Shown here piece by piece: positions 17,931-54,985 of a stretch of 64,000 nt of DNA (positions within the stretch are counted from its first letter, which is position 1; every line of letters starts with the position of its first letter). The notes beneath the pieces were generated by a model. That model had not been told where the DNA came from. It searched no databases and saw only the letters and a list, made by a program, of their open reading frames with translations. Source of the stretch: Blasia pusilla. Its lineage: Eukaryota. The stretch spans positions 34,782,001 through 34,846,000 of the forward strand of contig CM114271.1 in assembly GCA_050084515.1 (NCBI GenBank), written 5' to 3'. The translations under genes were made by a program, and so were the position numbers.

Positions 17931-20900
17931 TGTGAGAAAACAAAATGGGACGAAATCATTGAAATCTATTACAAATCTTGGAGATACAAAGTGGCCTAGT
18001 TCGTCCGTGCGCTTGGAGAAGCTTTGATGGAACCTGCACATGGAGATAACTTGACAAACGAGAATGCGTTACCGATGTGGCTCTCGAATATTTCACTATT
18101 CAGGAAACTAGGGTTTTTTACCTATTTTTCCTCATTTCTATTTATAGAAATTTTTTGCCTCGTAACGCTACTCTATAAACCACCTACGTCATATTACTAT
18201 GACTCCTTCGACATCCAAGTCGGAACCATCAATCTAGGCTTTTCCTCATACAAGGAGGCTGATCAAATTAATGATGTTGAGAGAAGTGGATGTTGAGAAT
18301 CCAACACCCCCCCTCAATATCCACTCTCATGTGGATTCATGTCTTGGACCGATGCCAAGACCCTTCAGATGTCGTTGAAGCTCATCTCCGCTCATGGCTT
18401 TGGTGAAGATGTCTGCATGGTTATTCTCTATTGGATAATAGACCAACATCAAAACCTCTCTCTCGATCAACTAACAAAAAAAATGAACTGAATTTCTATG
18501 TGCTTCGTATGAGCATGAAACACAGGATTATGTGCTATGGCAATGCAACTCTGATTGTCACACCACATTACAGTAGCACTTTCAGGTGCTTCTCCTATGT
18601 CTTCCAATATCCATCTCAGCCATACTGTCACAAGAAGCATAACAAGCCGTCTTATACTCTGACTTGGTCGAAGAAGGAGCCACCGTAGGTTGCTTCTTGC
18701 TGACCCACAACACCACATCTGATCCTACCTAGAAACAATAACTCAAAATTGATCTTCGAGAATCTGAGTCTCTTGGCCAATCCGAATCACAAAAAGCTGT
18801 CATTTCCGTCCATGCTCCATAGGTGATACCATACTCAATAGTTCTTTTGATGTACTTCAATACACGCATCCCTACCTTCCAATGATTCTCACGAGGCTTA
18901 GTTAAGAACCTACTCAATACTCCCACAGCGAAGCTAATATCTGGTCTTGTGTTGCACAAAAATATCAAACTGCCCACAAGCTTTCTGTACAAATTTTCCT
19001 CTACCAAAGGTGAAACATCCTTCATTCATCCATCGGAGGACCCTCTAGATGCAAGAACAAACCCTTCCATGCCATAAAAGGGTTGAACCTTGTAGGGGCC
19101 CGTATCTCCTGGAAGTTGCACCATGTGTCGAACTCTTGGATGAAGTTGTCTAAGTCTATGGTGCTTACCTCACCATACCCATTTTCTGGTGAGGATGATG
19201 TTGAGAGTTTCAACTCTACCTTCATTGGAAAGACCTGTGCCTTACACTCGGTCATCCCGAATGCCTTCAAGATTTCTCTAGCATACTTTTTCTAAGAGAG
19301 AACAATAAAATCTAACTGTTGCTATCAACATATACATCCCATCTTTGCCAAACCCATGCAAAGTTTTTTGTGACGGACTCTTGATGAGACCCCTTTCTCA
19401 AAAGAATTTATCTATCGTTGATACCATACCCTTGGGGCTTTCTTCAACCCATACAATGCTCGATAAAGCAAATACGCTTTCTCTTATGATCCAGGTGTCT
19501 CAAAACTTGGTGGTTGAAAGAAATACACCTTCTCCTTGAGACTCCCATTCAAAAATGCAGACTTCACATTGTATTGGTGTACAGGCCAACGTCTTGTTCT
19601 TGCCATCGCTAGAACAACTCGAATGGTTGTCATCCTTGTAGTAGGAGCAAAATTCTCATAGTAATCAAAACCTTTGATTTGTGAACATCCTTGTGCAACC
19701 AACCTCGCTTTGATTTTATCCAATGTACCGTCCGACTTATACTCGGTCTTGTACATCCCCTTGGTGGGTATTATCTTCATGTCCTTTGGCTTCTCAACCA
19801 AAGTCCAAGTTTCATTTCTCTAAATAGCATCCATCTGCATGTGCATGGCCTCTCTCCATTAAGGATGAGCAAAAACCTCATCGAAGCCTGATGGCTCTTC
19901 CACCTTCAAGACCATTGTCATCAAGGCCATGTTGATGAGATGTGCGGAAGCTCTATTATGCTCCTCTAGTCTCTTGGATCTCCTTGGATGTGTAGCAACT
20001 TCATCAATTGCTGGTGGATCCTTACCATCTAAGAGCTGCTTTATCCACTTAGGATATGACGACCGTAGTGGAAGACCAAGCTTATCTTTGTGATCATCAC
20101 CAAATTCTTCTTCTTGATGATCCGGTGTAAACATTGATGATGTGCTCTGGTGGGTTATCTCTTCGTTTGATGATAATGTGGACGGACCACTGATATCCGC
20201 CACTTGACGAGGCTGTTCTTGAAACACCACATCACGACTCACAAGCATCTTCTTTGTATCAGGACACCATAGGCAATATGCTTTAGACTCATCACTATAT
20301 CCCATAAAGATGCATTTCCTACTCTTGGACTCTTGCTTGGTCCTCGATGCTTTAAGAATATGTACAAAGCACTCACTACCAAAAGTCTTGAAGTGTAGGA
20401 TTGATGGTACCTTACCTAAGTATGCTTGATGAGGAGTCATGCCTTGCATCGACTTGATAGCACTTCTATTTAGAATGTAAATGGCAATATTAACAACTTC
20501 AGCTCAAAATCCTTTTGTCAAACCTTTTACTTTCATCATACATCTTGCCATCTTCACCACTGTACAGTTTTGACGCTCAACAACTCCATTTTTTTGTGGT
20601 GTATGTGTCGTGGTTAACTGTCGCTTGATTCCATGCTCCCCCAAATATTTGTTGAATTCTGCTGATAAGAATTCTCCTCCTCAATTGGTGCGAAGCTTCT
20701 ATACCTTCTTTCCTGTAACATTCTCAACCAGCTTGTGCCATACTTTAAAATTTCCAAAAGCCCTTATATCACAAAGGAAATACACCACATTTTCCTACTA
20801 TCATCTTTGACAACTAAAAAGGAGTAGGAAGAACCACCTAATGCCACTATTCTCATTTTACTACACAGGTCAGCCTGTATCTGCTCTAGATGAGCATTTG

Positions 20901-22743: not shown

Positions 22744-23857
22744 ACAACATGGTGAAATGGTCAATTGGTTGAGGGATGTCGCCATAAAAGAAGGAGGGAT
22801 CCTCACAACAAAAATTTGGTTGAAATGCATGACTTGCTTTATGCTAGATTCCCCACAAGAATGCTATATGATATAGACATGCATGCAAAACTTGTTATTG
22901 GCATCCCAACTGTCTCCAAGAGGAGATGTTATTGTCCCATAGATGCCCTACTTATAGACAATCTTGGTCATGGTGCAAACTCTACAATTTTCTTGATATT
23001 CCATTCCATACATAGAATAAAACCGGCCCTTTGGCAAATAGGGTGGGAGAGAAAAAAAATTGTAGTTCATAATACGAGGGAGGGGCACCACTAGTTTGTA
23101 TACCAGGTATATATAGGAGAGAATCCCCTCAAGGAGAGGAGAGAATACGAGGGAGGGGAAGTTTTGGCAAGAGAGAGAAAATGCTTGATATACAAACCAC
23201 CACTAGTCATAAGGAAGGACTTGTCCACCAATTTCATATAGAAAGGATGTACATAACTCAAAATAAAAAATTCACATATAGTTTGGGACACGAATGTACT
23301 ATGGCCTTAGAATTTTCCAAGAGACTCCCCAAAGTTTATCTTGGGGATTAACTAGTCAAACGTTAGTCAAAGAGTGAATTGCGACTTTGACTTACAATTT
23401 AGCCATACATTTATTTTTTAACTTTATCAATCTTCCCAATAATGTGATTTTTTTTGATAAAAATTATTAAATTTTTATTCAAGAATTTCATCATTCCAAT
23501 CATACAAGTTAAATGATATAAGAAAAAAATATTTATGTATATATAGATGAATTTTGTACAAAATAGAAACTCATATCACAAATCCTAGGTATACCTACAT
23601 CATTGATGTGCATTTAATGTTCCACATATGTGGAGTCATGTTGGTTGTGTAGAAGTTCCATCGCCTAAAGACATTTGTATCACGTCTTTTAGGATGGATT
23701 GAAAAGTATCCGTAAGGTGCCTATGAGAAGATTAGATGAAAGTCCGAGGATGTCAAGGATGATTTGCTGAGGTTCTAAGTAACTTGAGAGAGCAGGTTTC
23801 CCCTTTGTTTTGGCTCATTTGGAGCTATTTTGAGAAACTTATTATTTTGGATTTTTG

Positions 23858-36963: not shown

Positions 36964-37783
36964 AGGCCAGTAACAGTGATAGTGTGATTGTAAATCCGTT
37001 TGAGGATTGGATATTTTTCATGAGAAATGGAAGACTTGGTTCAAAAAGATGAATGTGTTACTATAAATTTTTGTAAATGATGAAGCTTGATTGATGTATG
37101 GATGTATATATCGTCTGTAATCGTATCACTATTATTGGAATTAATTGTTAAATCACCTTTCTTTTTGTATTTTGGTAAAAGACAAGATGGAGTTGCCACC
37201 TCATGAAGACCCTCATCCACATTGAGTATAACCCCACCGCCACGGTGGGATTGATGGATCCATTGGTGGTTGATCTTGTTTTGAGGAGACTTGAATTGAT
37301 CTTGCCACCTTTCTTATGGCAAGATATTCCTCAAAGGATTGAAGGCGGATATCCTCGAACATACCATTACCCTCATCGAATGCAAGAGGAACTCTTTGGA
37401 TTCTTCAAGAGAGAGTGGGAGATGTTTCCTACACATCCAACACAAGAAATAGATGATGGTGAAGCCGAGGTTAAGTTGGAGAGGACTATTCCTCATGGAG
37501 GTGGGATGCGCGCGACTAGAGCTAAGGAAAGAGGAGGAAGAGTTGGTGAGATGTCTGCGCCGATGTTACATATATCTGATGATGAATCAGATTAGATAGA
37601 ACGAGTTCATATTTTTATCTTTGTAATGTACATAAGTATTAGATTTCTCTCAATCCAGATATTTTGTGGGGAACTCCGGATCCTCATTTGTTGTAAATAT
37701 ATTTTCAAATTTCTCTTAAATATTCCATTGAGGAGATTTGTGAATATTGTGAGCCAATCACGAATGTTGTCCATGAAGTGAGT

Positions 37784-37917
37784 TGTCGTGCGGATACACA
37801 TCGCTACACAACATCCACCGTTGGTCATATCCACACCACACAACACCAATCTTCCCCACACACGGGTAGATCCATACATATATAGAAATCAACTTATACA
37901 TATATATGGAGATCACA
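37784..37917 (-). repeat. Terminal repeat B2 of the Gypsy-like element
   Basis: Aligns to 38401-38540. Confidence 0.88.
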
Positions 37918-38398
37918 AAAAAAAAATAAAGAGTAGTAAAAATGGCACACTCGGCCTTAAACTCCACTCCTCAATCTACATCAACATATTGAGCCTCGTC
38001 CACCCTTTGCTATCAAGGAATCCAGACGTTAACATCCAGTCCTAACTCACACACACGAGCAAGAATGGTACCCCAACGGCCCAACATGAGAAAAATGGCT
38101 TGGGAAAGCCATTTCCCCCCCTTATATAGGGTTCGGAAGAGCCAAAAGGCTCTTCTTGTAAAAATAACTATCCTCCTGGTAACGTGCGCGCACAGGTTAT
38201 CAAGGATGGATGACCTGCTAAACAAGTCACCTGGTTGTGAAAGACCTCAACAGGAAAGTAATCAGAAATAACGTTCCAAAATGGACCTATCCTCAACCTC
38301 ATCTCACACCTCGGGACAAAGATACACTCAAGACAATCTACTGCCTCCTATGCCCTATCCACGATAGATCTCGGCCTATCGGCTACTCAGATGTGACA
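37918..38398 (-). repeat. Terminal repeat A2 of the Gypsy-like element
   Basis: Aligns to 46322-46803. Confidence 0.9.
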
Positions 38399-38400
38399 GC

Positions 38401-38540
38401 TATCATGCGCATACACATCGCTACACAACATACATTCTTCGTCACATCCACATCCACACCACACAACACCGGTTTTTCCCACGAACTGGTATATCCACAC
38501 ATATACAGAAATCAACTCATACATATATATGGAGATCACA
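38401..38540 (-). repeat. Internal repeat B1 of the Gypsy-like element
   Basis: Aligns to 37784-37917. Preceded on the minus strand by the PPT-like AGGGGGGCAG. Confidence 0.88.
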
Positions 38541-38620
38541 CAACTGCCCCCCTAGCTGGCAGTTGGATCCTCCTAACTCCAGATAGAAAATATCACATCT
38601 CCCTGACATGACCTACTACC

Positions 38621-41540
38621 CTATACACATCTCGGACACATCCATCGTCCCGTGGGAACTACATCAAGAGGGGGGGGGTAGACATGACATATGCCACCCT
38701 TGAGAACAACCATCACATACCAACATGGTGGTTGCACCCCTCGCAGATCCGCACAACATACACCTCAAGCATGTAGGTACCACTACCAAGCTCATATACA
38801 CTGTCTCGTCCACGTTCAGAAGGTGACATTCGTATAGTTGCGCACATGATCCTTCCAAACCATACCATCCCCTCTCTAAACCATGAGGACTCCGGTCGGT
38901 AATACCTTGCGCACACGTAGGATTGTGCACCCTGCAGTGACATCTAGCATCGTGGGTACTGCCTGCTGTAAATACATGTAATCTCTAGAATGAAACCTCC
39001 TAATCCCTGGACGATAGCCTCCTCCACGAATGGTAGAGTACCTCAATGTATCCCTATGTTGAGGAATAGCTAAGTTCTCAAAGGCCATGGGCATAACTCT
39101 ACAAAAAATCTCCGCCCTCTGAGAACACGCTTGTACCCACACATCTGGATCATCAAGATCTAACACCTTTGCCATGTCACGTTGAATAGTTGCAGGTAAA
39201 TATGGCTCTCTCCCAAAGAGCAAAAAGTACCGGGAAAATGACGCCAAGGATGCTTGCTGATTAAAGCAATAATCCATAACCAACCATGGCAATTGTAGAT
39301 CCCACCCTGGTCAGTCAACACCTCCGCTAGTGCACCAAACTGACTAAGCACATGATCTAGAAATGCATAAGCTGTTCCCTTGCTCGTCTTGTCTGGTAGT
39401 GCCATCAACTCTATTCACTTGGAGAAATGGTCCACCATGATCAACACATACCTGTGATGACGCCCCGTCAATGGCAAAGGTCCTGTGAAGTCTAAACTCC
39501 ATCGATAACCTAAACCCATAATTGGCAAAGGATGTAACTACGAAGTGGGAGCATTGAAGGATGCTCACATACCATACATCTAGCCACAAATTGATGTACC
39601 CCAGTATGCATGCCGCGCCACCAATATTAAACTTGAAGTAAGCTGTAAGTATGCTTAACTCCAAAATTCCCTAACTCCTGATAGGCATGTCGTACTACAC
39701 ATGCTCGCTAGGAACGATGAGGTACCACTTGTATCCTACCATCTCCCCATACCCAAAAATTGTGAGTCTCCTCCCACTTGAACCTCTTGGCTCTTAGTAG
39801 GATCCGATCCTACTCCCTAGCACTCACTGTGCTCGCTATGATGCCAGTATGCAAGAACTCCAAAACCTCCACGTCGTCATGGATATCACTACCACGTGTC
39901 GTCTCCTCACTGACCTCCCGATCCAAAGACTCATCATTTGACCCTACCACTAGAGTCACCGCTTGCAGCTAACTTGCCATAGTCAACCAACAAAGATAGG
40001 CAAATGCATGCCAACCAGGCACCATCTCCTCATCACTCTCTCCATGCCATCAAGCTCCTGTGTCGTCTCTCTGAATCGGACATGGGTTACGACTCAACCT
40101 ATCCGCATCTTGGTTCAGCCGACCTGGCCTGCGAACCACCTCAAACTCATACTCTTGTAGTAATAGAGCCCACCTGGCAAGCTTTCTTGTAAGCTTTTCG
40201 GACTCCATCAACCACCTCAACGGATGATGATCAGTGATAAGTGTGAAAGGGTTGCCGAATAGATAGCACAATGAAATGTGCCACAATCCACACAGCAACC
40301 AAGCTCTCTCCCTCGTAGGAGTTGTACTTCGCCTCTGCAATGTTGTTTGATTGGCTCGCGTAAGCCACAATGAATTCCTTCTCCTCGTCATCCCTCTGAG
40401 TAAGCACTCCTCCTAGATCCAACATGCTCCAATTTGTATGTAATTGGAATTAATGGGCGACCCCTAATTAGTCTCTGTAAAATGGGTTAGGATGTCAACC
40501 TGTCCTTGAGCTCCTGAAATGCTCGCTCCTAATCATCTCCCCACAACCAAACCTGGTCAAGTCCCGTTAGCAAGGTCAAAGACTTCGCGATTGCACTAAA
40601 ACCCTTGACATACCATCGATAGAAGTTTGCCAGTCCCAGAAACGCTCAAACCCGACTCACATCTGTAGGGCGTGGAATCTGCGCAATAGCCTCCATCTTT
40701 GTCTACTGAACACCTAACCCACTTGGGTATATGGTGTGTCCCAAGAACTCAATCTGCTCCAGAAAGAATCTGCACTTTCCTGGATGTAACTTCAATCCAT
40801 GTAACTGCAATCTCTGAAGCGCCTCCTCCAAGTGTCGCTCATGCTCCTCAACTGTGGAACTGAAGATAAGAATATCATCTATGTAACACCGTACAAAATT
40901 CAAGCCAGCCAGAATTATATCCATCACTCTATGAAACTCCGCACGCACATTCTTTAACCCAAATGGTAAGAACCGCCATTGATACAAGCAAACTCTCCCA
41001 AACCAATCTATCCCCGAGAATGTTGTCCTCAATGTTATCTTCTCCCTGTCTTCCAATCTGATAGAAAGCTAATGATAGCTGGAGATCTAAAGTATTGAAG
41101 ATCTTTGCATGCCCTACCGCATCAAAGATCTCCTCAGGAGCAAGCATGGCATATCGATCTGACTTCGTCTATCGGTTGAAAGGTCGGTAATCCCCGCATA
41201 TCCGCCTATCCGTCCAATTGCCATTTATATCCTTCTTTGTCGGCATGATTGTGGCAGATGCATACTCCCCATGTAATAACTCCACAAGTCTTGCCTCCAA
41301 CAAGTCCTAACTCCTACTCTAAATCAAGGCTCGCACCATATTAGAATACCTGTAGGGTGGACAAAAGATCGGCGTATCACTAGCCAACTCAATCCATATC
41401 CCGAGACCCTTCAGCGTACCCAAGTCTCTCATACTAAAAGAAAAGCAACTGACATGCCCTCTCAAAAACCTATGAACTCGCCGTTGCTCTCCTCCTATCA
41501 ACTTGAGACCTATCACAGACTCCCAAGTCTCCATTATGAC
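38621..41540 (-). pseudogene. pol region (RT, RNase H, integrase, PHD finger) of the Gypsy-like element
   Basis: ORF fragments 41319-41534, 40703-41056, 40050-40391, 39160-39408, 38876-39292 and 38664-38930. Ends WMCPRCV-stop at 38621. Confidence 0.9.
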
Positions 41541-41849
41541 CTCACTTGGAGAGGACGCAACCTCCGGCTTTGGTTGCTATGTAGCAACCCTAGCCACCTC
41601 CGCAACAACCACTCCACTCTGACCTCCTACACCATGCTCCACATCTGAAAAATGAACATGTGCTGCTCTGGCCGCCTTCACACTCTCTGCTCAAACGACA
41701 TCCTAGGAAGTCCATGGGTGCTTATCTCTCCTCGTCCGTCCCCAGCCAATGCCTATACAGACCTTGTAGGCAATGCTGGAACTCGTGGACATGACGACAT
41801 GGATGATATGCGCATTCGTCTCTACTCACCCATACAAAGGCTAACTATC

Positions 41850-42765
41850 CATGTGAGAAAGTTGAGGCCCATTGCCTGCCCCAACACCTATCTCCATGAT
41901 GCCTCAGTCATACCCGTCACCGCCGTAGTATCCGTAGCGAACCCCATGGTGCGCTCGCGCTCATCCGGATTACCTCATCCCAAATCATGCATGACTCTCC
42001 TTGACAAAAGGCATGAGATATTGGGAAGCTCACCAACGTAGATAAGGTTGCCTTCAACTCCTTCACCGTATTGGCTATCGCCAACGGTGGTCTATCATCC
42101 CGCGTCACCACTTGAGACAGACACCTAGAGCCCAAAATAGCATCCACTGTGAGATGTGGTGCTCTCTGAACTCCATTGTATGCTCAACTCTGTACCTCTT
42201 ATGGTATTAGCTTCGTCCAGCACAATTGTGGATGGTGGGCGTCTGATCCAACTCTCGCTACATCTAACAACACAAAAGGTCCTAACCATAACCTCACCTG
42301 ATGCATACTGGTCATCACACGTGCACGAGTGTCTCCCAACAATGGAACGTTCTCCAAAATGTAGGCCGGAGAACATGTTTGACTCTCTTGCAAGTGTCGC
42401 ACTACTCATAGCATCTCCCAAAATATCCCTGACCTCAGATCCTGCAATCCAACCTCGGCCAGTCGATGAATGACCCTCACATGGCCATCCAGCAATCAGC
42501 AAATGAATGGTGCCAACTCTATCTAGATCCTCTGCCCCCACCAAAGAGATGTCGGCGGGTAGTGTATGTTGATACCCCCATACTGCAAATACTGGCAACA
42601 ACCCAGGATACCTCTGGACCAATCTCGCCAAGTGACGTAATGATACTCGCCGTGCGGTCTTATCTCTCTCCACATAAAGGTACGGATGCACCCGTATGCC
42701 CGCCTGCAACACCACAGCTAATCCGGTGCTAATCCCTCCAAAGAGATCACCACTGGATATCACAC
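41850..42765 (-). pseudogene. Retrotransposon-borne DNA (cytosine-5) methyltransferase domain
   Basis: Motif I DLFGGIS, motif IV AGWPCEGHS, motif VI ILENV, motif VIII-like DAHHPQLCW, motifs IX-X DERERTMGF...VLGQAM, in canonical order across frameshifts. Confidence 0.9.
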
Positions 42766-43269
42766 AATGGGTGTGGTATCCAATGGTGTCAACATCTCCA
42801 CTCCAGAAGCCCGATCGCCACCTGACTCTCGTTGCTCCGGGATAAAGGCATGACTCCACGCCTGCCTCACGAGGTCGTCAACACTCCTCTATAGCTCTCA
42901 AGTCGTACCCTACAATCGCGAAGAGGTCTCATCAACATGGGAATAGACACCTGCCATGGCTTGTGTCTCCATGGGACTATCCGCTACTAGGACATCCTCC
43001 GCATGTGCATTCCCCTTTAACTATCTCTGAATGAGAGGCAGTCAACTCTCCACGTTCACACAACATGATGGCCAGCCGGAATACCTCAGCTGGTCCAACT
43101 CCCAACGTCACCAACTCTATGGCAGAAAATAACTGAGCCTGGCTTACCCTGGTGACCACCTCCAACACTGTGGTTGACACTGACTCCACTCGAGCTCGCA
43201 TAGGAGCTGCCACTCCAACTCCTCGTGACATTGATGCACCTGCCTGACCTGTAGGCAGCACTGGTCGTC

Positions 43270-44984
43270 AAGGCACCATCAATGGTGTGTGAAGTGCCTC
43301 TGACAACATGAACAATTGTGGAACCCTAGCTTGCCGCCCATCGGTCCCCTCTGCTGGGTCAATCTCAACTCCACCTCTCAATGGCTTAGTGCCTCTCGTA
43401 GCATCCCAAGTTACCACCACAGTAGCCTCAACCTGAGCCGCACTACACATAAACCCCATATTAGCAAGATCCTCACCCGGATCAGAGTAAGAGGTAGAAG
43501 CTGGAGCCACACTAGCTACTCTCGGCTCCCTGCCTTCCCTGAGCTGCATCATCGTCATGGTAGCAATCCTCTGCTCCAATTGATTGATGCGCAAGAGAAG
43601 CGCCGTCTCTTGTGCTCCCGCTCCATCTCCTCTGGCAAGTGGTGGTCTTCTACCACCACATCCAACAAAAACTCCTCGACCTCCTCCAGGTTGACCGCCC
43701 CCACGCCCTTGGCCTACCTCTGGACGTGCCTCTCGATACAGGTCAAAACATCTATCCCTAGTGTGACCATATCTGTGGCAATAGTCACACTCGTACTGTG
43801 GTGGGGCCATCCTCTATGGCTCCTGAGCAATCGGAGGCGCTCGTGGTCCTCTCCCATGCTATGGGCAGTCTTTCTACCTATGGGCCCCTCCATACGTCCA
43901 ACAAGACAACATCGGTCCCTGCTGGGCAACATATGTAGGTCGGGTCGTTGCCTCATAGGCTCACGGTACCCGCCCTGCTCTTTGGGCACACTGGCCCGCT
44001 CCCGTTGTCGTGGTGCTCGCTGTGGCAAGTGTGGGGTTACCGTCGCTCGTGGACCCGTCAACTCTCAAGAAAATCCAGTGGTCACTACCTCCTCATCACT
44101 CATGTTGAGCTCAATACGCTCAGACAAATCAAAGACCACCTTCAATGTGAGCTTCGCCATGTGAATCAGCACCGCATTTGGACTTTCCTCCGGAGTTCTC
44201 GGTCCAGAACCCTGTACCAGTACTAGATTGACTACGCCTCAATCACTCCATAAGTAACAATGATCACCCTCCTCATGCGCGTGAATGCCTCTCTTAGACT
44301 CTTACCCAATCATTGCTTAAAATCTTGTAGACTCTTCAGCTTGCTGGTACGTAGGCCCTAGTAGCTCTTTCCCAACTGTCAGAAGAACTTCACTAAGGGA
44401 CTGAAGCTGGGTGGCCCTCTACCACCAAAGCTCTCTGCCATATTTCTTGTCTCACTGCCCTCCTCTCCATCTAGTCTCTAGGCTCATGGTGTGGGTCTCT
44501 CTCCTCTCACAATCCCATCATATGCCTCACAACCACTAGTGGACACATAGCCTCGAGCCCAATATATCCTCCACGCATCAATCTCTTCTAAATATAGTGA
44601 TCAAAGCTCCATGTAATCATTCATCGGAGGATGCTCCAAGTGTTGGAACAACCCCTTCCATGCCATGAAAGGGTTGAACCGTGTCGGGGTCCATATCTCC
44701 TCGAAATCGCATCATGTGTCGAACTCCTGGATGAAGTCATCTAAGTTGATGGTGCCTACTGCACCTGAGAAATGACGCACGCCTTGGTGGCCCATATCGT
44801 CAATCTCCTCCCAATTGACACTACCTCCGTCTGCGATCTAGTCACCAGATTCGCTATCCACTGATGAAGATCCAGCCACAGATGGAAGTCGAGTTAGCTC
44901 CTCACTCGTAACCCTTCGATATCTCACTTCACCCCGTGTCACACCACTACTACTGCTCGCACTACCCGATTCTTCCGAACCCAT
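43270..44984 (-). pseudogene. gag of the Gypsy-like element
   Basis: LDDFIQEFDT...FMAWKGLFQHLE capsid-like segment, CCHC knuckle and RGG-rich tail. Many stops. Confidence 0.75.
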
Positions 44985-46321
44985 GAAGAATGCCGTAATG
45001 AAAACCCTGTCTCACCCGCTCAAGCACTCAGACTCACCACGAGTCTCCCATACTCCTCACTAGCTCACCTAGGCTAATGGTAATCTTGTGACGACACATA
45101 TGTCCTCATGCACACTTAACACTCGGGCTCACCATAAGCCTCCCAAATAACTCACCTAAACTGCTGACACTCTCGGGTCATACATGTGACCCCTACTCGG
45201 CAACCGACATATATCCACAGACATGCTACACATGCATGGAGACTACACTCGTCACCATCGCTACACCCATCTAACCTCAACAACTACCCAATACCCAGCA
45301 CTCTCAATCACATAAGATAAGCGTGGGAAAAGGGACCCAAAAGGGTAACCTGATCACGCCCTCCAACCTACGACACCGTCAACACTCACTCCTCCATGTG
45401 GTACGGCAACCTCCGCAAAATGATACTCTCCTCGACACGCGTCAAACCTTTCATCATTGGATGCAAACTATTGTCGGCATCGACACGTGTGTCTCCATCA
45501 CAACCCTCGCAAATCCCAATCAGTGAAGAACTAATGAGTCAACCCCCAATTGACTCGTAATAGCTACCAAACTCCCATCGCAAATCCCACCATGCTCGCG
45601 CAATACCAAGTCTCAAAATGCTCTCCTACTACGTAACTCAACGCAGTCACATCCGCCCCCTCAAACTGGTAGCCTGAACCAACCGCGTCTGAATCCTTGC
45701 CCTACCATGTCCGCTATTGCCTCTACCACGTCGGCCTGACCTTACTACGTCCTTTCGACTGCCCACGTCGGCCCTGCTCGACTACGTCAACCTTGACCCC
45801 GACCACATCCGGTTTGCCTACCACGTCCATATTTTGACTACGTTGGGCACCTACCACGTCGTGAGGAAGACGCCGACCACGTCCGGAAAAGGAGGAGGGG
45901 GGAATGGCCCTTGGCTTGTGCCCCAAATCAGACTTTTGACTCCCGATGTACTCTGTCATGCCCTGCCCTCTTCCGTCTTTGACCTAACCCTAGCCCTAGG
46001 CAGCTACGCCCTAGCCTGGCCGCCTTTACTTGACAATCCCTGACAGCTACAAGTCAGGTTTCAAATTCCTCTTCTCCTTCTCCCGTTACTCTCGTCGATA
46101 CACTTGCCGCCCCACTTTGCGCTATGCCAAGCCGTTGTCCCCCGTCAACTTGCACTAGAGAAATTTGAGAAAAACATAGAGTGCTTCCACGCACAGCCTT
46201 TTGAACAAAAAAATGACAACAAAACGTCAACTAGAGTCTCCAGGGGCTCCCGGTCGAGGCAACTCGCTTGCCTACCTGCAACCAACGAATTCCCACCAGC
46301 CCCCTGACATCTTTCTCATGT

Positions 46322-46803
46322 AAAAATAAATAGTAGTAAAAATGGCACACCCGGCCTAAAACTCCACTCCTCAATCTACATCGGTATATCGGGCCTCGTC
46401 CACCCTGTGCTATCAAGGAATCCAGACGCTAGCACCCAGTCCTAACTCACACACACGAGCAAGAATGGTACTCCAACGGCCCAACATGAGAATGATAGCT
46501 TGGGAAAACCATCTTCCTCCCTTATATAGGGTTGGAAAGAGCCAAAAGGCTCTTCTCCTAAAAATAGCTATCCTCGTGGTAACCTGCCCGTACAAGTTAC
46601 CAAGGGTGGATGACTTGCTCAACAAGTCATCCGGTTTTGAAAGACCTCAACATGAAATTTGTCAGAAACGATGGTCGTGACACAACTGAAACCTATCATC
46701 AACCTCATCCGACACCTCGGGACAAAGTTACACTCAAGATTGTCTGCTGGATCCTATGTCTTATCCATGATAGATCTCGGCCTATCGCTACTCAGATGTG
46801 ACA
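46322..46803 (-). repeat. 5' terminal repeat A1 of the Gypsy-like element
   Basis: Aligns to 37918-38398 only. No B segment is adjacent. Confidence 0.9.
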
Positions 46804-48239
46804 GAGTTCATGAAATGGATGAAAGTTTTCTCTTGGGTTATAAGTCCTTGGATAAGGTGGAAGGTACGATAATTCAAAGGTTTGACATAAATTTAAATAT
46901 TTTGCTTATTAATATTAGAAGTATTTGCATATATTCGAACATCTTGAACTTATACTTCATATAAGGAGTTCTGATTAATTGTTTTATAAAATAATTAATA
47001 TCCAAGAAGTGTATTTTGAAATTTTGTTTCCAAATTATTGTTTGATTTTCCCTATACTAAGGTAAGTTTTCCATAGAAACGAGGGATTTTAAATCAATTT
47101 TAATTTTTTATTAAAAAAAACTATTTCCTGAAAATTTTTGTAGCCCTTCTATTTATTTTTTCATTTTTTTAATTTAAATTAATATTTCAGCATTTAGGAA
47201 AAAACCTATACTTGTAATTTCAGGTTAATTTTGGAAGTGAAAATACAGATGACTTTAGAACTACGTCATTTAATGTATTTTTCAAGTTTTTTTTGTCAAG
47301 GATTTTTTAAGAAAATTTTGAGACAAACTTGGGATCAAAATGATTTTTAACTAATTGAGAAACGTTGGAGACCACTATCAAATCTGTCCATGAATTTATG
47401 ATTTCTTTTTAGGTTTATCCTATACTAAGCAAAAATAAGAATGGGTAAGGTCGTAATAATAGTTAGTTAATTTTAATTAACTCAAATTCAAACATCTTCC
47501 CCATGAAATCTTCTAGAGTTTTTTTCATTTTTTTAATCTTTCCTCATTTGAGAAATTATTTTTTGTAGGTGAATGCAAACATAATTTAAAGTTTAGTTTT
47601 GAGGGGAAATCAAATTTTCTTTTGGGAAAAAATGAAAAGGATAATAGGATAGTAATGGGAGAAGAATTATTCTTCGAAATAAAGGAAGACATATTATTTC
47701 TATAAGATTTTAACTTTCAAGTTAGATTGGGGGGAAATTTAATGCCTCTTTTGGGAAATAAATTCATCAAAATAAGTGGTTTTCTTTTATTTATTGAAAG
47801 ATGGGGATTGGGTAAAAGGATGAATTTTTTATAAAATTTTAATAAAGGAAAATTATGTTTTAATTAAATTATAAAAGAAAATAATGTTTGAATTACGTTT
47901 AGTGAAAAATATTGCATGGGATAAAATTAGAAAGGGATTTGGGTGCAAATGGAAACAAAATTTACTTATTAATTCATATTTTATTTAATACTATAATAAG
48001 TGAATATAAATATTACTAAATTATTAAAAAAAATTAGATAAATAAATAATTTGTACCTTAATTCATATGTAATGGAAAGGGAAATTGAATTTTAATGGAA
48101 AAGAAATAGATTTGGTTCGAATTTTATAGAAGGATGAATTTACGTACGGGACTAGGATATCATTTATATTTGAATTGAGGAGTGTAATTACTTACAAGAA
48201 TGAAATGTAATAATTCTTCTAAGATTTTTTAGAAGACCG

Positions 48240-50577
48240 CAAATGGTCCCCAAGTTACATCTATCACTCTTGCAAATTATCAACCCAAATGAAGTTGTGA
48301 CCACAATCTAAAAAATGACCTTCTTGGACCCAAAGCACTAAACCTTGAATGAAAAAAAAAAGGTCTTTTAATTTTTCATCTTGTCCAACTTTCCCATCTT
48401 AAGCTGAAATTTAGCCCATATAGTCTCCAAGCTGCATCTAGAACTCTTGTTAGGTTTCAAGCAAAATCGAGTTGAGACCACAAGCTCAAAAATTGGTAAG
48501 TCCTTTTTTGACCCAAACCATGAGACCTTCTATCAAAACAAGGTTTTTTTTCATTTTTCATCTTGTCCAAATTTCCCATATTCAGCTGAAATTTGGCCCA
48601 TATGGTCCCCAAGGTGCATGTTCCACTCTTGCTAAGTTTCAAGAAAAATGGAGTTGTGACCAAAACCTCAAAAAATAACTCCTTTTTGGACCCGAACCAT
48701 CAAACCTTGAATGAAAATAGGGTTTTTTTATTTTTCATCTTGTCCAACTTTCCCATCTTGGGTTGAGATTTGGCCCACATAGTCCCCAAGGTGCATGTTC
48801 CTTTCTTGCCAAGTTTCAAGCAAAATGGATTTTTGCGTAAAAACCTCAAAAATTAATAACCCCTTGTTGGACTCGAACCATCAAACCTTGAATGAAAATA
48901 GGGTTTTTAAATTTTTCATCTTGTCCAACTCTCCCATCTTGAACTTAAATTTGGCCCACATTGGCATCAAGGTGCGTGTTCCACTCTTGCAAAGTTTCAC
49001 CCACACTGGAGTTGTCAGCAAAACCTCAAAATTTGGTAAGTCCTTTTTGGACCCGAATCATGACCTTGAATGAAAATGTGGTTTTCTAATTTTTCGTTTT
49101 GTCCAACTCTCCCATCTTAAACTGAAATTGGGCGCACATTGTCCTCAAGATGCATGTTCTACTCTTCCAAAGTTTCACCCATAGTGGAATTTTGAGCAAA
49201 ACCTCAAAAATTGGTAAGTCCTTTTTGGACCCGAACCATCTTACCTTCTCTCAAAATAAGAATTTTTTCATTTTTCATCTTGTCCAACTCTCCCATCTTG
49301 AGCTGAGATTTGGTCCACATGGTCTCCAATGTGCATCTAGCACTCTTCCCAAGTTTCATGAAAAAAAGAGTTGGGACCACAAGCTCAAAAATTGGTAAGT
49401 CCTTTTTGGACCCGAGCCATGAGACCTTCAATCAAATTAAGATTTTCTCATTTTTCATCTTGTCCAAATTTCCCATCTTAAGCTGAAATTTGGCCCAGAT
49501 GGTCTCCAAGGTGCATCTAGCACTCTTGCAAAGTTTCAAGAAAAATTGAGTTGGGACCACAAGCTCAAAAATTGGTAAGTTATTTTTGGATCCGAACCAC
49601 GAGACCTTCTATCAAAATAAGGTTTTTTTTATTTTTCATCTTGTCCGAATTTTCCATCTTGAGCTGAAATTTGGCCCACATGGTTGCCAAGGTGCATGTT
49701 CCACGCTTATCAAGTTTCAAGAAAAATAAAGTTTTGAGCAGAACCTCCAAAATTAATAACTTCTTTTTGGACCCAAACCATTACATCTTCTATCAAAATA
49801 AGGCTTTTGCATTTTTCATCTTGTTTGGTTTTCCTATCTTGAGCTGAAATTTAGTCCACATAGTCTCCAAGATGCATCTAACACTTTTACCAAGTTTCAA
49901 GAAAAATGGAGTTGGGACCACAAGCTCAAAAATGGGTAAGTCCTTTTTGGACCCTAACCATGAGACCTTCAATCAAAAGAAGGTTTCTTTATTTTTCCTC
50001 TTGTCCAACTTTCCCATCTTGAGCTGAAATTTGGCCCACATGGTCCCCAAGGTGCATCTTCCACTCTAACCAAGTTTCAAGTAAAATGGAGTTGTAAGAA
50101 AAACATCAAAAATTAATAACTTCTTTTTGGACCCGAACCATTAGACCTTAAATGAAAATAGGGTTTTTAATTTTTCATCTTGTCCAAATCTCCCACCTTA
50201 ATTTTGCCCGAACCATGAGACCTTTTATCAAAATAAGGTTTTTTCATTTTTCATCTTGTCCAACTTTCCCATCTTGAGTTGAAATTTGGCCCACATGGTC
50301 TCCAAGGTGCATGTTCCACTCTAGCCAAGTTTCAAGAAAAATTGAGTTGTGAGCAAAACCTCAAAAATTAATAACTCCTTTTTGGACCCAAACCTTTAGA
50401 GCTTTTATCACAATAAGATTTTTTCATTTTTTATCTTGTCTAAATTTTCCATCTGGAGTTGACATTTGGTCCCCATGGTCTCCAAGGTTTATCTAGCACT
50501 TTTGCCAAGTTTCAAGCAAAATAGAGTTGGGACCACTAGCTCAAAAATTGTTAAGTCCTTTCTGGACCCGAACCATT
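48240..50577. repeat. Tandem array of a ~180-bp unit, about 13 diverged copies
   Basis: ATTTTTCATCTTGTCCAA-like anchor recurs near 48371, 48553, 48730, 48911, 49089, 49270, 49451, 49631, 49811, 49991, 50170, 50246 (shortened unit) and 50426. Confidence 0.93.
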
Positions 50578-52790
50578 TGTCGTGGGCATACACATCGCTG
50601 TCATCGAACACACACACAAACATACACGATCCCATGCTAACTCATGGCATCCATACATAGAGGCCAGAAGTACCAAAATATCTCCAATGAAGTAAGATCC
50701 AATCTCTCTCTACATCATCTCACACCATAGCTCTCAAAGGTGTGCACTCTCTCTCATGTCAAACCAAACCCACTCTCCTAATGAGAGGCTTGGGTTACAC
50801 TCACAAGGCAAGGGACCATAGCTCCGTGGCCTTATGCCAAGAGGTTCAACAAAGAGAGAATGAGCTCTCAAGCTCTCTCTCTTGGAGGTATATCCCCTTC
50901 CCTCTCCCAAGCCCTCTCAACGGTAACCTATACTCGCAGGTCACCTCCTTGGCTCTTGACCTGCTGCTGCTCAAGGGCCACTTCCCAAAGTGGAAAGTCA
51001 ACTATCCCCAACATGGAAACTTACCCGAAATAGTAAGTTTCTCATTATGGCTCCAAATGAGCCGAAACGAAGGGGAAACCTGCTCTCTCAGGTTTCTCGG
51101 GGCCTCAATAGGTCATCCTCGACCTCCTAGGCATGTCCTACACTACTCATGCAGACGCTCTGCTAGATCCTATCGATCTATCCTAACAGTCGTGACAGTT
51201 GTCTTGCGCATACACATCGCTACACAACATACATTGTTGTCATCGAACACACACATAAACACACACGATCCCATGCTAACTCATGGCATCCATACGTAGA
51301 GGCAAGAAGTACCAAAATATCTCCAATCAGACGTGCCATATGCCAACCTCTCGAACATCCATCACAGACTAGCATCGTGGCCGTACCACGAGCAGAACCA
51401 CACAACATAGAACGCAAGCCCGCAGGAACTACTGCTGAGCTCGGATCTACTGTACCATCAATGTTAGGAAGGTGACATAGTGCACAATTACGCACATGGT
51501 CCTTCCATACCATACCATTGCGTCCCTCCAGCAAGAGAACACCGGATGGCAAAACGTCACGAACTCTCAGGATAGTGCGCCCTGCAGTCACATCCAACAT
51601 CGTCGGTGCCATCTGCTGCAAGTAGACATAATCTCCCTGATGAAACCTCTGGATAGTTGGTCGATAACCACCACCCCGAATAGTCGCATACCTCAACGTA
51701 TCCCGATGTTGCCCAATCGCCAAGTTCTTGAACGCCATGGGCATCACTCTCCGGAACAACTCAGCCCTCTGAGAGCATGCTCGCATCCATACATCTGGGT
51801 CATCAAGGTCCAACACCTCACCAGCATCTTAACAAATGGCCGTAGGTAAATCTTGCTCTGGGCCATAAAGTAGCAAGTACGGTGAAAAAGACGCTAGGGA
51901 TGAGTGCCTATTGAATCTATATCCCATTGCCAACCACAGAAACTGGAGGTCCCAATCTCCTAGGTAACCTCTCTGCAAGTCATACTTGCGGAAACCCCTC
52001 TTCACCGTCTGCACAACTCTCTCCGCTAATCCATCCACCTCGAGATAATCTCGCGAAGTCGTGCGGTGGTCGATCAGCGCCTGATCACACAAGGCCTGGA
52101 ACTCACCGCGAAACTTAGTACCCTGGTGTGTCAACACCTCAGCCGGTGCGCCATAATGACTCAACACTCTGTCAAGGAAGGCATAAGCTACTCCCTCACT
52201 CGCTCTGTCAGGCAATGCAACCAACTCGATCCACTTCGAGAAGTGCTCGACCATCACCAACACATAACGACTGTGACGCTCAGTTAAAGGCAAAGGTCCT
52301 GCAAAATCTAAACTCCATCTATACCCTAAGTCCATGATCCGTAATGGATGCAACTGTGGAGTCGGAGCATTGAAGGATGCTCGGACCCGATCACACACCA
52401 TGCACCTGGCAAAAAACTGCTGAACGTCAGTCTGCATGCCTCGCCACCAATACTGAATCTGGAGCAAGCTGTATATCCGCTTCATCCCAAAGTGACCCAA
52501 CTCCTCGTGGGCATGTTGCACTAGTCGTGCTCTCTGTGAAGGATGCGGCACTACGCGTACTCTACCATCCTCCCAAACCCTCAAAACATGTGTCCCCTCC
52601 CAATGGAACCGTCGGCCTGGCTGCCAGAGGATCGATCCACTCTCTAGCACCCACGGTGCTCGCAACGCTGCCAGTACGAAGGTACTCCTAGACTACTCCA
52701 TCATCATGAATATCTCGGCCACCTGTCGTCTCCTCACTGGCCTCGGGATCCAAGGACTCTCCACTAGACCTCGCCATCGAAGTCTCCATA
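50578..52790 (-). mobile_element. Second, related Gypsy-like element, 3' part only: integrase, partial PHD and B1-A2-B2 terminal repeats
   Basis: IN zinc finger HEELGH..CMVC, WSLDFAGPL, GLAER and PHD start MLCGS..VCDGCSRGWH. Repeat 50578-50688 ~ 51200-51327 with junction GTGACA-GT-TGTC at 51192-51203. Abuts the 180-bp array. Confidence 0.9.
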
Positions 52791-53487: not shown

Positions 53488-54832
53488 CTACAACAACCCT
53501 ACTCCAACCTCTCAAGCCGTCCATCACCCTACCCCTAGACATTTAATACCCCACTAAAATTATCGGGCCCCCCACAATCCCCTTGCCCGCACCCTAGCCG
53601 GCACGTGTGCTCCAAGGGTCGCAACAAGCCCATGCACTCGCTAGGAAGCCCGAGTCCTTGCCCGCGGGCGAGCTCCAAGGCTCGCAACGAGCCCGCGCCC
53701 TAGGACTGCATGCGGGCTACAAAACTTGCCAACACGAAAAACTGATCACCAAAGTCTGCTTGCGACGTACCAAAGTAACTTCCTAAGGGAGGCCATGATT
53801 CACACATGTTCATCTAGGGTGGGAAGTGGGAATGTGCACACACCTGCTGTAAAGTAAATTAGGCGGTTCTTACTAGTTTTTATGATGCCCGGAGTGCATT
53901 TGAGATGGAAAACACGATTTCTTTGTCAAAGTGGCGAAAGAACCGTTGGGGATTGCCGGTTTGGCATGTAGGTTGCCTGCACGGGCCCGGCTGGGTTTTC
54001 CTCGGCAACTCAGTTGCCGACTTCCGGCGCCCAGGAGTCGATACCATCGACTCGTGGACCCCGTCCCACCCCACGATGAGTCCTCCGCGGTGACCGCCAG
54101 TTTAGGTCGTCCAACACATCGAAGGAGCTGGCATGATTCGAATAGATATTCGAACAGCGGACGAACGGGATCCAATCCTCGCTACCGGGCATTCCTGCGC
54201 CCACGTACCTACCCAGTTCACGAGCGGTGCAGTACCCGACCCCAAATCGCAAAAGGTACAGGTCCAAGTTAAGTTGCTGACACCCAAGATTAAATAAATG
54301 ATGGCGTGAATTCTGCTTTCACTCAGAGCACGCATCGGATCCTTGGGCTTACCATCGATCATGAGCGGGCCCTGAGTGGCTGGCTGGCAATCACTGTCTT
54401 CACGAATGGCGGCCTCGTGCTCGCGCAATCTGGGACGCTCGCTTCCAGGGCCTGCACTTACGAGCACATTTGTGCATGATTACACTATTTGAAGTTATGG
54501 TGCCCGTCCGAGTCCACCTTGTCTAAGTCGCCGGTCAGGACTGTCCAGAGCATAGAATTCCCACGCGCCTCCAAGCATCGAGTATCGGAACGTTAAACTT
54601 CTAGATCAGATCATCAGACGAGGATCTGTCATGGCATGCATACATGCGGAGAAACTGGCGGGGTATAATAAATAAACTTGTAGAAGTCAATGTTCCATGA
54701 CCACTGCTCACTCCTAAATATGGGGCAGGCGGTCAAAACTGCATTGTGCCGCACTGCAGCAGCAATGCCTGTGCACAACATGTGGCGGCGTGGCCTGAAC
54801 GTGTGTTCAACCTCCTCGAGACACATGTACTT

Positions 54833-54985
54833 GCGCACCGCATACACACAATAACTGAATTGCTGAATCAGAAACATCGTTGCCAGTTCCGTATGTTCGT
54901 TTACGCGCGCACCGCATACACACAATAACTGAATTGCTGAATCAGAAACATCGTTGCCAGTTCCGTATGTTCGTTTACGCGCGCA
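54833..54985. repeat. Perfect 74-bp tandem duplication
   Basis: Two identical 74-nt units bounded by GCGCA microhomology. Confidence 0.95.

Follow-up and report, generated by a model that had tools for sequence, protein, structure and literature searches.

The 64,000-nucleotide (nt) stretch of Blasia pusilla DNA analyzed here (contig CM114271.1, positions 34,782,001 to 34,846,000; hereafter the window) contains, on its minus strand, a 9-kb unit which is an old and dead copy of a Ty3/Gypsy-type retrotransposon. Two direct repeats, a long one (A) and a short one (B), are each present twice in this element, and the order read on the minus strand is A1, genes, B1, the dinucleotide GC, A2 and B2, with TGTC...GACA as outer ends. 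According to the textbook rule, a retroelement relying on a DDE integrase inserts the linear product of reverse transcription, which carries the same long terminal repeat (LTR) at both ends. The features of the window element are listed below; all coordinates are positions in the whole window, and "coding strand" refers to the minus strand.

46804-46807, minus strand: target-site duplication (TSD) ACTC, 5' side on the coding strand (direct reading; same as 37780-37783).
46322-46803, minus strand: A1, the 5' repeat, with its TGTCAC start at 46803; it holds the TATA box and the predicted RNA start (repeat search, self-BLAST).
46522-46528, minus strand: TATATAA box within A1 (direct reading; same box in A2 at about 38122-38128).
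46484-46492, minus strand: predicted RNA 5' end and self-primer, about 29 nt 3' of the TATA box, reverse complement of the bases directly after A1 (the A2 copy, 38084-38093, matches over 10 nt).
46312-46321, minus strand: predicted self-priming primer-binding site ACATGAGAAA, adjoining the end of A1 (complementarity reading).
43268-43813, minus strand: gag-like open reading frame (ORF) piece with a CCHC zinc knuckle (translation; the Pfam result is a weak zinc-finger match only).
About 41998-42877, minus strand: decayed C5 cytosine DNA methyltransferase domain, in three frames (motifs, BLASTP, tblastn).
40454-41534, minus strand: reverse transcriptase (RT) with a YIDD box, frameshifted (Pfam RVT_1, 1.6e-20; tblastn).
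40050-40449, minus strand: RNase H (Pfam RT_RNaseH and RT_RNaseH_2).
38831-39670, minus strand: DDE integrase (H2C2 zinc domain and rve core), frameshifted (tblastn with residues 1145-1446 of the relative P0014, 56-57% identity).
38664-38984, minus strand: PHD finger at the integrase C-terminus (Pfam PF00628, 1.5e-6).
38547-38553, minus strand: polypurine tract AGGGGGG, immediately 5' of B1 (direct reading).
38401-38546, minus strand: B1, the internal short repeat, with a GATA end at 38401 where relatives have GACA (repeat search, self-BLAST).
38399-38400, minus strand: spacer GC, separating B1 from A2, at the candidate internal abutted-ends site GACA-NN-TGTC (direct reading).
37922-38398, minus strand: A2, the 3' long repeat, with its TGTCAC start at 38398 (repeat search, self-BLAST).
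37784-37920, minus strand: B2, the terminal short repeat, with its GACA end at 37784 (repeat search, self-BLAST).
37780-37783, minus strand: TSD ACTC, 3' side (direct reading).

This layout, already claimed in a first-pass annotation of the same DNA, was recovered by repeat search, self-BLAST and direct reading of the sequence. In the alignments, A1 and A2 (46322-46812 and 37922-38407) are 85.8% identical over 492 bases, and B1 and B2 (38403-38543 and 37786-37920) are 81.6% identical over 141 bases. The joint between A2 and B2 is located inside a T-run, its exact position being uncertain by a few bases. No B was found beside A1, on either side, by direct reading. The repeats of this copy have diverged by 14-18% and pol, aligned by tblastn with an intact relative, can be read through only with six or more changes of frame, which shows that the copy is dead. 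Both flanks carry the same four bases, ACTC, a match whose chance, taken alone, is 1/256.

The proteins were analyzed from minus-strand stop-to-stop ORFs with Pfam and by tblastn with the intact relative P0014. The coding order of the window element is gag (CCHC), C5 methyltransferase, RT, RNase H, integrase and PHD finger, and the colinear tblastn alignment of P0014 on the window covers RT, RNase H, integrase and PHD. Two short integrase pieces had no Pfam match, the integrase being identified by tblastn instead. Through its RT-RNase H stretch, the P0014 polyprotein has Ty3 Gag-Pol (7q5b, 2.2e-94) as its best solved structure, and in both P0014 and the window element the RT is Ty3-like and pol follows the Ty3/Gypsy order of RT, RNase H and integrase. 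Two further Ty3/Gypsy hallmarks are a DDE integrase, for which the integrase ORF of element 2 (see below) matches relatives bearing H2C2 and rve, and short target duplications, which are present in the set of 13 complete copies described below. A tyrosine recombinase (Phage_integrase) was searched for with Pfam in 10 ORF pieces of the window and 10 ORF pieces of the relatives L062 and L046, and none of these 20 pieces contains one; since all copies are decayed, this absence rests on the surviving sequence. Pfam and tblastn thus agree with the first-pass annotation, which had reported Gypsy RT, RNase H and rve integrase and no tyrosine recombinase.

The C5 methyltransferase remnant (about 41998-42877) and the PHD finger (38664-38984) come in addition to what had been annotated. 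The remnant contains, over three frames, what we take to be methyltransferase motifs I, IV (PC), VI (ENV), VIII, IX and X in that order. It matches the DNMT region of P0033, a protein from Klebsormidium nitens (BLASTP, E=3e-8), and residues 158-251 of P0014 (tblastn, E=1.5e-6), and PF00145 is present in an ORF of the relative L062 (Pfam, 1.5e-6). Judged from these similarities, the enzyme is of C5 type, encoded within a Gypsy pol, with the non-rearranged motif order of the Dnmt3 type, the Dnmt3 subtype itself being putative. Upstream of the coding part, the 2.5 kb from A1 to gag has no recognised domain, and a 149-bp stretch of the untranslated 5' part (44617-44765) is 82% identical to positions 19026-19174, located 25 kb away.

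A relative of this element, here called element 2, is present in the same window:

50578-52692, minus strand: element 2, 5'-truncated, with about 72% DNA identity to the window element (self-BLAST, tblastn).
52692-51220, minus strand: integrase-PHD ORF region of element 2, with an open 287-aa integrase ORF and a PHD ORF (ORFs, tblastn).
51327-51200, minus strand: B1' of element 2 (sequence reading).
51199-51198, minus strand: spacer AC of element 2 (sequence reading).
51197-50689, minus strand: A2' of element 2 (sequence reading).
50688-50578, minus strand: B2' of element 2 (sequence reading).

Element 2 shares with the window element the B-A-B tail, the TGTCAC start of A and the GACA end of B; beyond about 52700 it lacks RT, DNMT, gag and A1. 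Used as a query, its integrase ORF matched 136 longer proteins, nearly all of which have a PHD finger after the integrase. The best named matches are from the liverworts Calypogeia fissa (79-81% identity) and Riccia sorocarpa (74%) and from Sphagnum (72%). The K. nitens protein KFL_009030040 (P0033), in which Pfam finds DNA_methylase, RVT_1, RNase H, H2C2 and rve in this order, is 51% identical to the query, and chlorophyte proteins (from Haematococcus, Volvox, Pleodorina and Chlamydomonas eustigma) are 43-45% identical. The methyltransferase precedes RT in P0014 and P0033 and sits between RNase H and integrase in P0042 and P0056 (Pfam), two positions within one clade which suggest more than one acquisition or a shuffle. 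The clade to which the window element belongs is one of the green lineage, with a Dnmt3-like C5 methyltransferase in pol and a PHD finger at the end of the integrase.

Metagenome contigs were scanned with an alignment of 17 integrases, which yielded 80 loci. Self-BLAST was performed on the 23 loci with enough flanking sequence, and A and B segments were annotated by BLAST in all 80. Identical flanks suggest that the same place was assembled twice in L012/L015, L044/L049, L064/L065 and L071/L072, which were counted once; L006/L008, with near-identical A1 copies, are probably a fifth such pair. Writing int for the internal part, the full A-int-B-A-B structure is present in seven metagenome copies (L006, L040, L056, L061, L062, L065 and L072), all full copies being colinear with DNMT, RT, RNase H, integrase and PHD, and five others (L004, L017, L019, L045 and L046) are A-int-B copies which lack A2-B2 despite more than 3 kb of downstream sequence. 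Together with the window element, these make 13 complete copies (eight A-int-B-A-B and five A-int-B), none of which has two equal LTRs. B-A-B 3' ends were found at about 26 distinct places, including both of those in the window and one of a third subfamily (L054), and about 15 of the 3' ends in the 80 loci, duplicates counted once, have B only. No A-B-A-int-B and no tandem B-A-B-A was found in the 80 loci. The layout is spread over three sublineages of an unrooted integrase tree (FastTree, 133 rows), namely the window element with L040, L006 and L004, then L054, and the L061 group.

A begins with TGTCA(T/C) in every copy and (G/A)ACA closes the last B, substitutions being the only variation, and in all relatives exactly two spacer bases (AC, GC, AA, AT or TT) separate B1 from A2. 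Perfect 4-bp TSDs flank eight of the 13 complete copies, three of the five A-int-B copies among them: ACTC in the window, AAGG in L006, CATA in L040, ATAA in L061, ATGT in L062, TACA in both L004 and L019, and CCAA in L045. Three more copies (L065, L072 and L017) match at three of four bases. As these duplications adjoin the outer ends of A and B, the unit running from the start of A to the end of B is what the DDE integrase inserted, as the first-pass annotation had proposed from the TG...CA ends and the flanking duplication of the window copy. Between subfamilies, conservation of the repeats is highest over the final 30-50 bases of B and the opening bases of A, which fits putative integrase binding sites. 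The recurrence of these features in independent relatives shows that the window copy is no one-off rearrangement: the whole family is characterized by the A1-int-B1-A2-B2 layout, by TGTC...GACA termini and by target duplications of 4 bp, and the suggestion of a lineage-wide trait holds.

In the reverse transcription of LTR elements, the complementary DNA (cDNA) starts on its left with the base next to the polypurine tract and stops on its right with the base preceding the primer-binding site. Candidates for both sites are present here as sequences. In the window, and likewise in 24 of 24 loci, B1 is directly preceded by a run of six to nine G; B2 has no such run before it. Directly after A1, the bases are the reverse complement of a stretch located in A at positions +29 to +35 from the TATA box, in the window and in the L061 and L040 subfamilies. 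This complementarity extends over 10 nt in the window (ACATGAGAAA and TTTCTCATGT), over 15 nt in L065, with the same pair in all eight 5' ends of the L061 subfamily, and, for the L040 subfamily, over 11 nt of its modal sequence, where a 10-bp hairpin includes the site as one of its arms. Together with a predicted transcript start, such complementarity points to a self-priming signature as in Tf1/Sushi elements. The two sites bracket a B+A unit and not the inserted ends; a polypurine tract at B1 and a self-priming site at A1 lead one to expect the cDNA B-A-int-B-A, with B+A as the LTR. Relative to this molecule, the inserted A-int-B-A-B is circularly permuted, with the opening at a B|A boundary.

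Other sites were considered and set aside. After A1, no TGG-initiated match fitting a tRNA 3' end was seen by eye, and TGGTGGGAATTCG, 25 nt downstream in the window, was considered as a tRNA-type primer site and dropped. A polypurine tract at the end of B1, which would make A the LTR, was rejected because the stretch is A/C-rich and not purine-rich. In the L040 subfamily, the hairpin is perfect over its 10 bp (CTCAAAGAAC-ATA-GTTCTTTGAG, A positions about 158-182) and coincides with the expected start of the RNA. A same-sense copy of its 5' arm stands directly after A1, with a further same-sense repeat, TGGGAGTAGTT, behind it. Hairpin and repeats may be part of a priming structure.

The joint between A2 and B2 differs from the other boundaries. 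Among 16 distinct L061-type copies, seven have the modal state, in which the end of A is directly followed by ATACATG, and nine differ: three by -2, two by -1, and one each by +C, by +G (the polypurine-tract base), by -5 and by +3 or +4. Six distinct L040-type copies show four states, one of which, in L009, has a 17-nt filler (2670-2688 of that locus); this filler resembles a nearby stretch of A. In the same copies, there is no indel within about 8 nt of the polypurine tract/B1 and B1/A2 boundaries, except for the length of the G-run. A variable A2/B2 joint between otherwise stable boundaries is as expected if A2/B2 is made anew at each insertion and the others are copied through RNA. This suggests that A2/B2 is the joint of two cDNA tips, as at a 2-LTR circle junction.

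A mechanism can be proposed on this basis, towards which we lean only slightly: the window element would be a dead copy of a permuted-repeat Gypsy family whose cDNA, B-A-int-B-A, has its ends joined and is opened by integrase at an internal B|A site. The RNA would start about 30 nt 3' of the TATA box in A1 and end in A2 or B2. Its first 10-15 nt would pair with the site adjoining the end of A1, by a self-priming of the Tf1 type whose mechanistic details are taken here as general background, such that minus-strand DNA begins at the end of A; plus-strand DNA would begin at the G-run polypurine tract adjoining B1. The product would be a normal two-LTR DNA, B-A-int-B-A, in which the LTR is B+A and the outer ends are not TG...CA. 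Instead, each LTR would contain the integrase recognition ends, abutted at its B|A boundary as GACA-NN-TGTC. Joining of the cDNA ends, in a 2-LTR-type circle or by end joining around integration, would create the A2|B2 joint. Integrase would then cut the B|A site on the primer-binding side, 3' of both CA dinucleotides, so that the ends have the form usual after processing, a recessed CA-3'OH with a 5' overhang of 2 nt, and the opened molecule would be inserted with a 4-bp duplication to give A-int-B-A-B. A-int-B copies may derive from cutting both B|A sites of the linear cDNA, from cutting a one-LTR circle, or from later B1 x B2 recombination. The ends and the duplications are directly observed; cleavage, tip joining and the form of the cDNA are what we infer from them. 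The idea, put forward in the first-pass annotation, of a circular cDNA opened at an internal B|A junction gains indirect support from the polypurine tract, the predicted self-priming site and the variable A2/B2 joint, and is plausible as a mechanism.

Cutting at such a site has precedents. Retroviral integrases cut abutted LTR-LTR junctions internally, as described for prototype foamy virus (PMC1180852) and human immunodeficiency virus type 1 (PMC1905944). In these systems too, an internal site made of two abutted ends is cut and processed ends are produced; the junction arises there by circularisation, as a side route, whereas in the window family each LTR would carry the abutted-ends site as a fixed part, and insertions always have the permuted form. 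Going one step further, it is possible, with a confidence which falls somewhat short of our leaning towards the mechanism itself, that this lineage moved its integrase recognition ends from the cDNA tips to an abutted GACA-NN-TGTC inside the LTR, integrates through end-joined cDNA and consequently has every provirus permuted. A comparable logic is found outside retroelements, DDE transposases of the IS3 family moving by a copy-out-paste-in route through a circle junction.

Several observations weigh against this mechanism or the family picture on which it is built. In a joined two-LTR molecule the B|A site occurs twice in identical form, so that use of the other one predicts A-B-A-int-B. B precedes A1 in none of the 13 5' ends examined, the mirror form A-B-A-int-B being thus unseen, and its absence among the eight copies with duplicated parts has p of about 0.004 under equal use of both sites. 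Speculatively, the integrase might take the LTR next to the primer-binding site first, because this LTR would be double-stranded long before the other; also speculatively, A-B-A might collapse fast through its longer A repeats, feeding the A-int-B class. A-int-B itself could be a direct product, the outcome of B x B recombination or an assembly collapse, the last being conceivable in principle for contigs assembled from short metagenome reads. Where AT was lost next to another AT, the joint variant could reflect slippage in an AT-rich stretch, which does not easily explain the other variants. Two of the 13 complete copies (L056 and L046) have no TSD, element 2 has no G-run before its B1', and the 250-aa methyltransferase piece of the window has no Pfam match. 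Finally, every step after transcription is deduced from dead copies.

The missing mirror form is better explained by a route in the style of DIRS elements, in which the RNA runs from inside A1 into B2, an end-to-end cDNA is made with B1-A2 as template for the missing outer parts, and linear A-int-B-A-B is inserted by the DDE integrase. This accounts for the single orientation of the inserted form, and the layout is indeed that of the split direct repeats of DIRS-type elements (PMC8969392; Fig. 1e legend of PMC5890265). However, a polypurine tract at B1 and a self-priming site at A1 suit the two-jump route of LTR elements, leading to B-A-int-B-A, and an A2/B2 joint copied through RNA should be as stable as B1/A2, yet it varies among close copies. 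We consider this route unlikely, though it deserves more weight than the two explanations that follow. If the copies were those of a true DIRS element, or mobilised by a DIRS tyrosine recombinase acting in trans, the Gypsy integrase would be irrelevant. Only the repeat layout speaks for it; DIRS elements are described without target duplications (PMC8969392), whereas the copies found here are flanked by 4-bp duplications and end in TG...CA, no tyrosine recombinase is present in 20 ORF pieces, and the RT-RNase H stretch of P0014 is closest to Ty3 among solved structures, all of which makes this explanation extremely improbable. An ordinary two-LTR Gypsy element whose window copy was later rearranged, by nested insertion, deletion or unequal crossing-over, is equally hard to credit. 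The window copy is old and decayed, and secondary events are plausible in general, but the same layout, with outer TSDs, recurs in seven full copies independent of each other, at about 26 3' ends from three sublineages and in element 2, and none of the 13 complete copies has two equal LTRs. The joined B-A-int-B-A cDNA opened at its internal B|A site remains the reading to which we give preference.

A comparison with known systems shows that the combination itself is not new, contrary to what the first-pass annotation had assumed. KnitGypsy-Dnmt3 of Klebsormidium nitens has Gypsy domains together with DIRS-like repeats (de Mendoza et al., 2018, Nat Commun 9:1341, PMC5890265, Fig. 4c legend). 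Like the window element, it has a non-rearranged Dnmt3-type methyltransferase inside pol and A-coding-B-A-B repeats, the DNMT inside pol placing both in the same broad group. The comparison was made through the published description and the K. nitens protein. The K. nitens elements are reported to be under purifying selection. The hosts differ, the nearest named integrases of the window family being from liverworts and mosses (72-81%), and P0033 falls in a different clade from the window element in the unrooted, integrase-only FastTree. The parts of PMC5890265 consulted give no termini, target duplications, primer sites or mechanism for KnitGypsy-Dnmt3. Among the papers searched, its name was found in this one only, and searches of the literature for split direct repeats with an integrase and Gypsy, or for DNMT3-bearing Gypsy elements in bryophytes, returned no description beyond it; neither "PHD" nor "methyltransferase" occurs in the text of a survey of plant LTR elements (PMC6317226). 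The window copy is thus a new, decayed member of a known and barely described kind. What is added here is the G-run polypurine tract at B1, the putative Tf1-like self-priming site at A1, the GACA-NN-TGTC B|A site and the variable A2|B2 joint; in the literature searched, no permuted-provirus reading with a built-in abutted-ends site was found.

Members of the DIRS order (PAT, Ngaro, SymbioDIRS-Dnmt3 and TOC1) share the A1-internal-B1-A2-B2 layout (PMC8969392, PMC5890265), TOC1 being a non-autonomous DIRS element (PMC9940879). DIRS elements use a tyrosine recombinase and lack TSDs, whereas the window family has a DDE integrase, TG...CA ends, 4-bp TSDs and a Ty3-like RT; of the DIRS traits, it thus shows the split repeats, and neither a tyrosine recombinase nor the absence of TSDs. 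Its likeness to Tf1/Sushi elements would lie in the priming signature, a candidate primer-binding site next to the 5' repeat that could pair with the expected start of the element's own RNA. In plants, self-priming is also a prediction made for the Tcn1 and TAR clades (PMC6317226). Tf1/Sushi and Tcn1 elements have two equal LTRs, unlike the family studied here. A PHD finger is also present in the Gag-Pol of the Chlamydomonas element Gypsy-7a_cRei (PMC9940879), and PHD-bearing chlorophyte proteins are frequent among the relatives of the integrase studied here. In the description of that element, the PHD is printed before INT, the passage mentions no DNMT, and the LTRs consist of subparts, the left LTR being short of the last 8 bp only.

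Other repeats were observed in the window. The AT-rich interval between both elements (48240-50557) consists of about 13 copies of a tandem repeat of about 180 bp, 60-85% alike, and is satellite-like. At 54828-54975, inside GC-richer DNA, a 74-bp unit is duplicated in tandem with 97% identity. On the plus strand, 107 bp at 23744-23850 are 81% identical to positions 66-172 of A2' of element 2, in opposite orientation, and this fragment is probably a remnant of another copy.

The family described here breaks the equal-LTR rule systematically, across liverwort-like, moss-associated and charophyte hosts, with a layout so far mentioned, as far as the consulted parts of the literature go, in one figure legend only (PMC5890265). 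The polypurine tract, the self-priming site, the abutted ends and the variable joint turn this oddity into a testable model. Since LTR-finding pipelines expect two equal LTRs beside TSDs, they will mis-delimit or miss such elements. The DNA methyltransferase and the PHD finger of the family are of interest for the interplay between transposons and host chromatin. If the model is true, circular or end-joined cDNA would be an obligatory integration substrate in this family and not a dead end, and the permuted-provirus lineage would link LTR elements mechanistically to DIRS elements with their split repeats.

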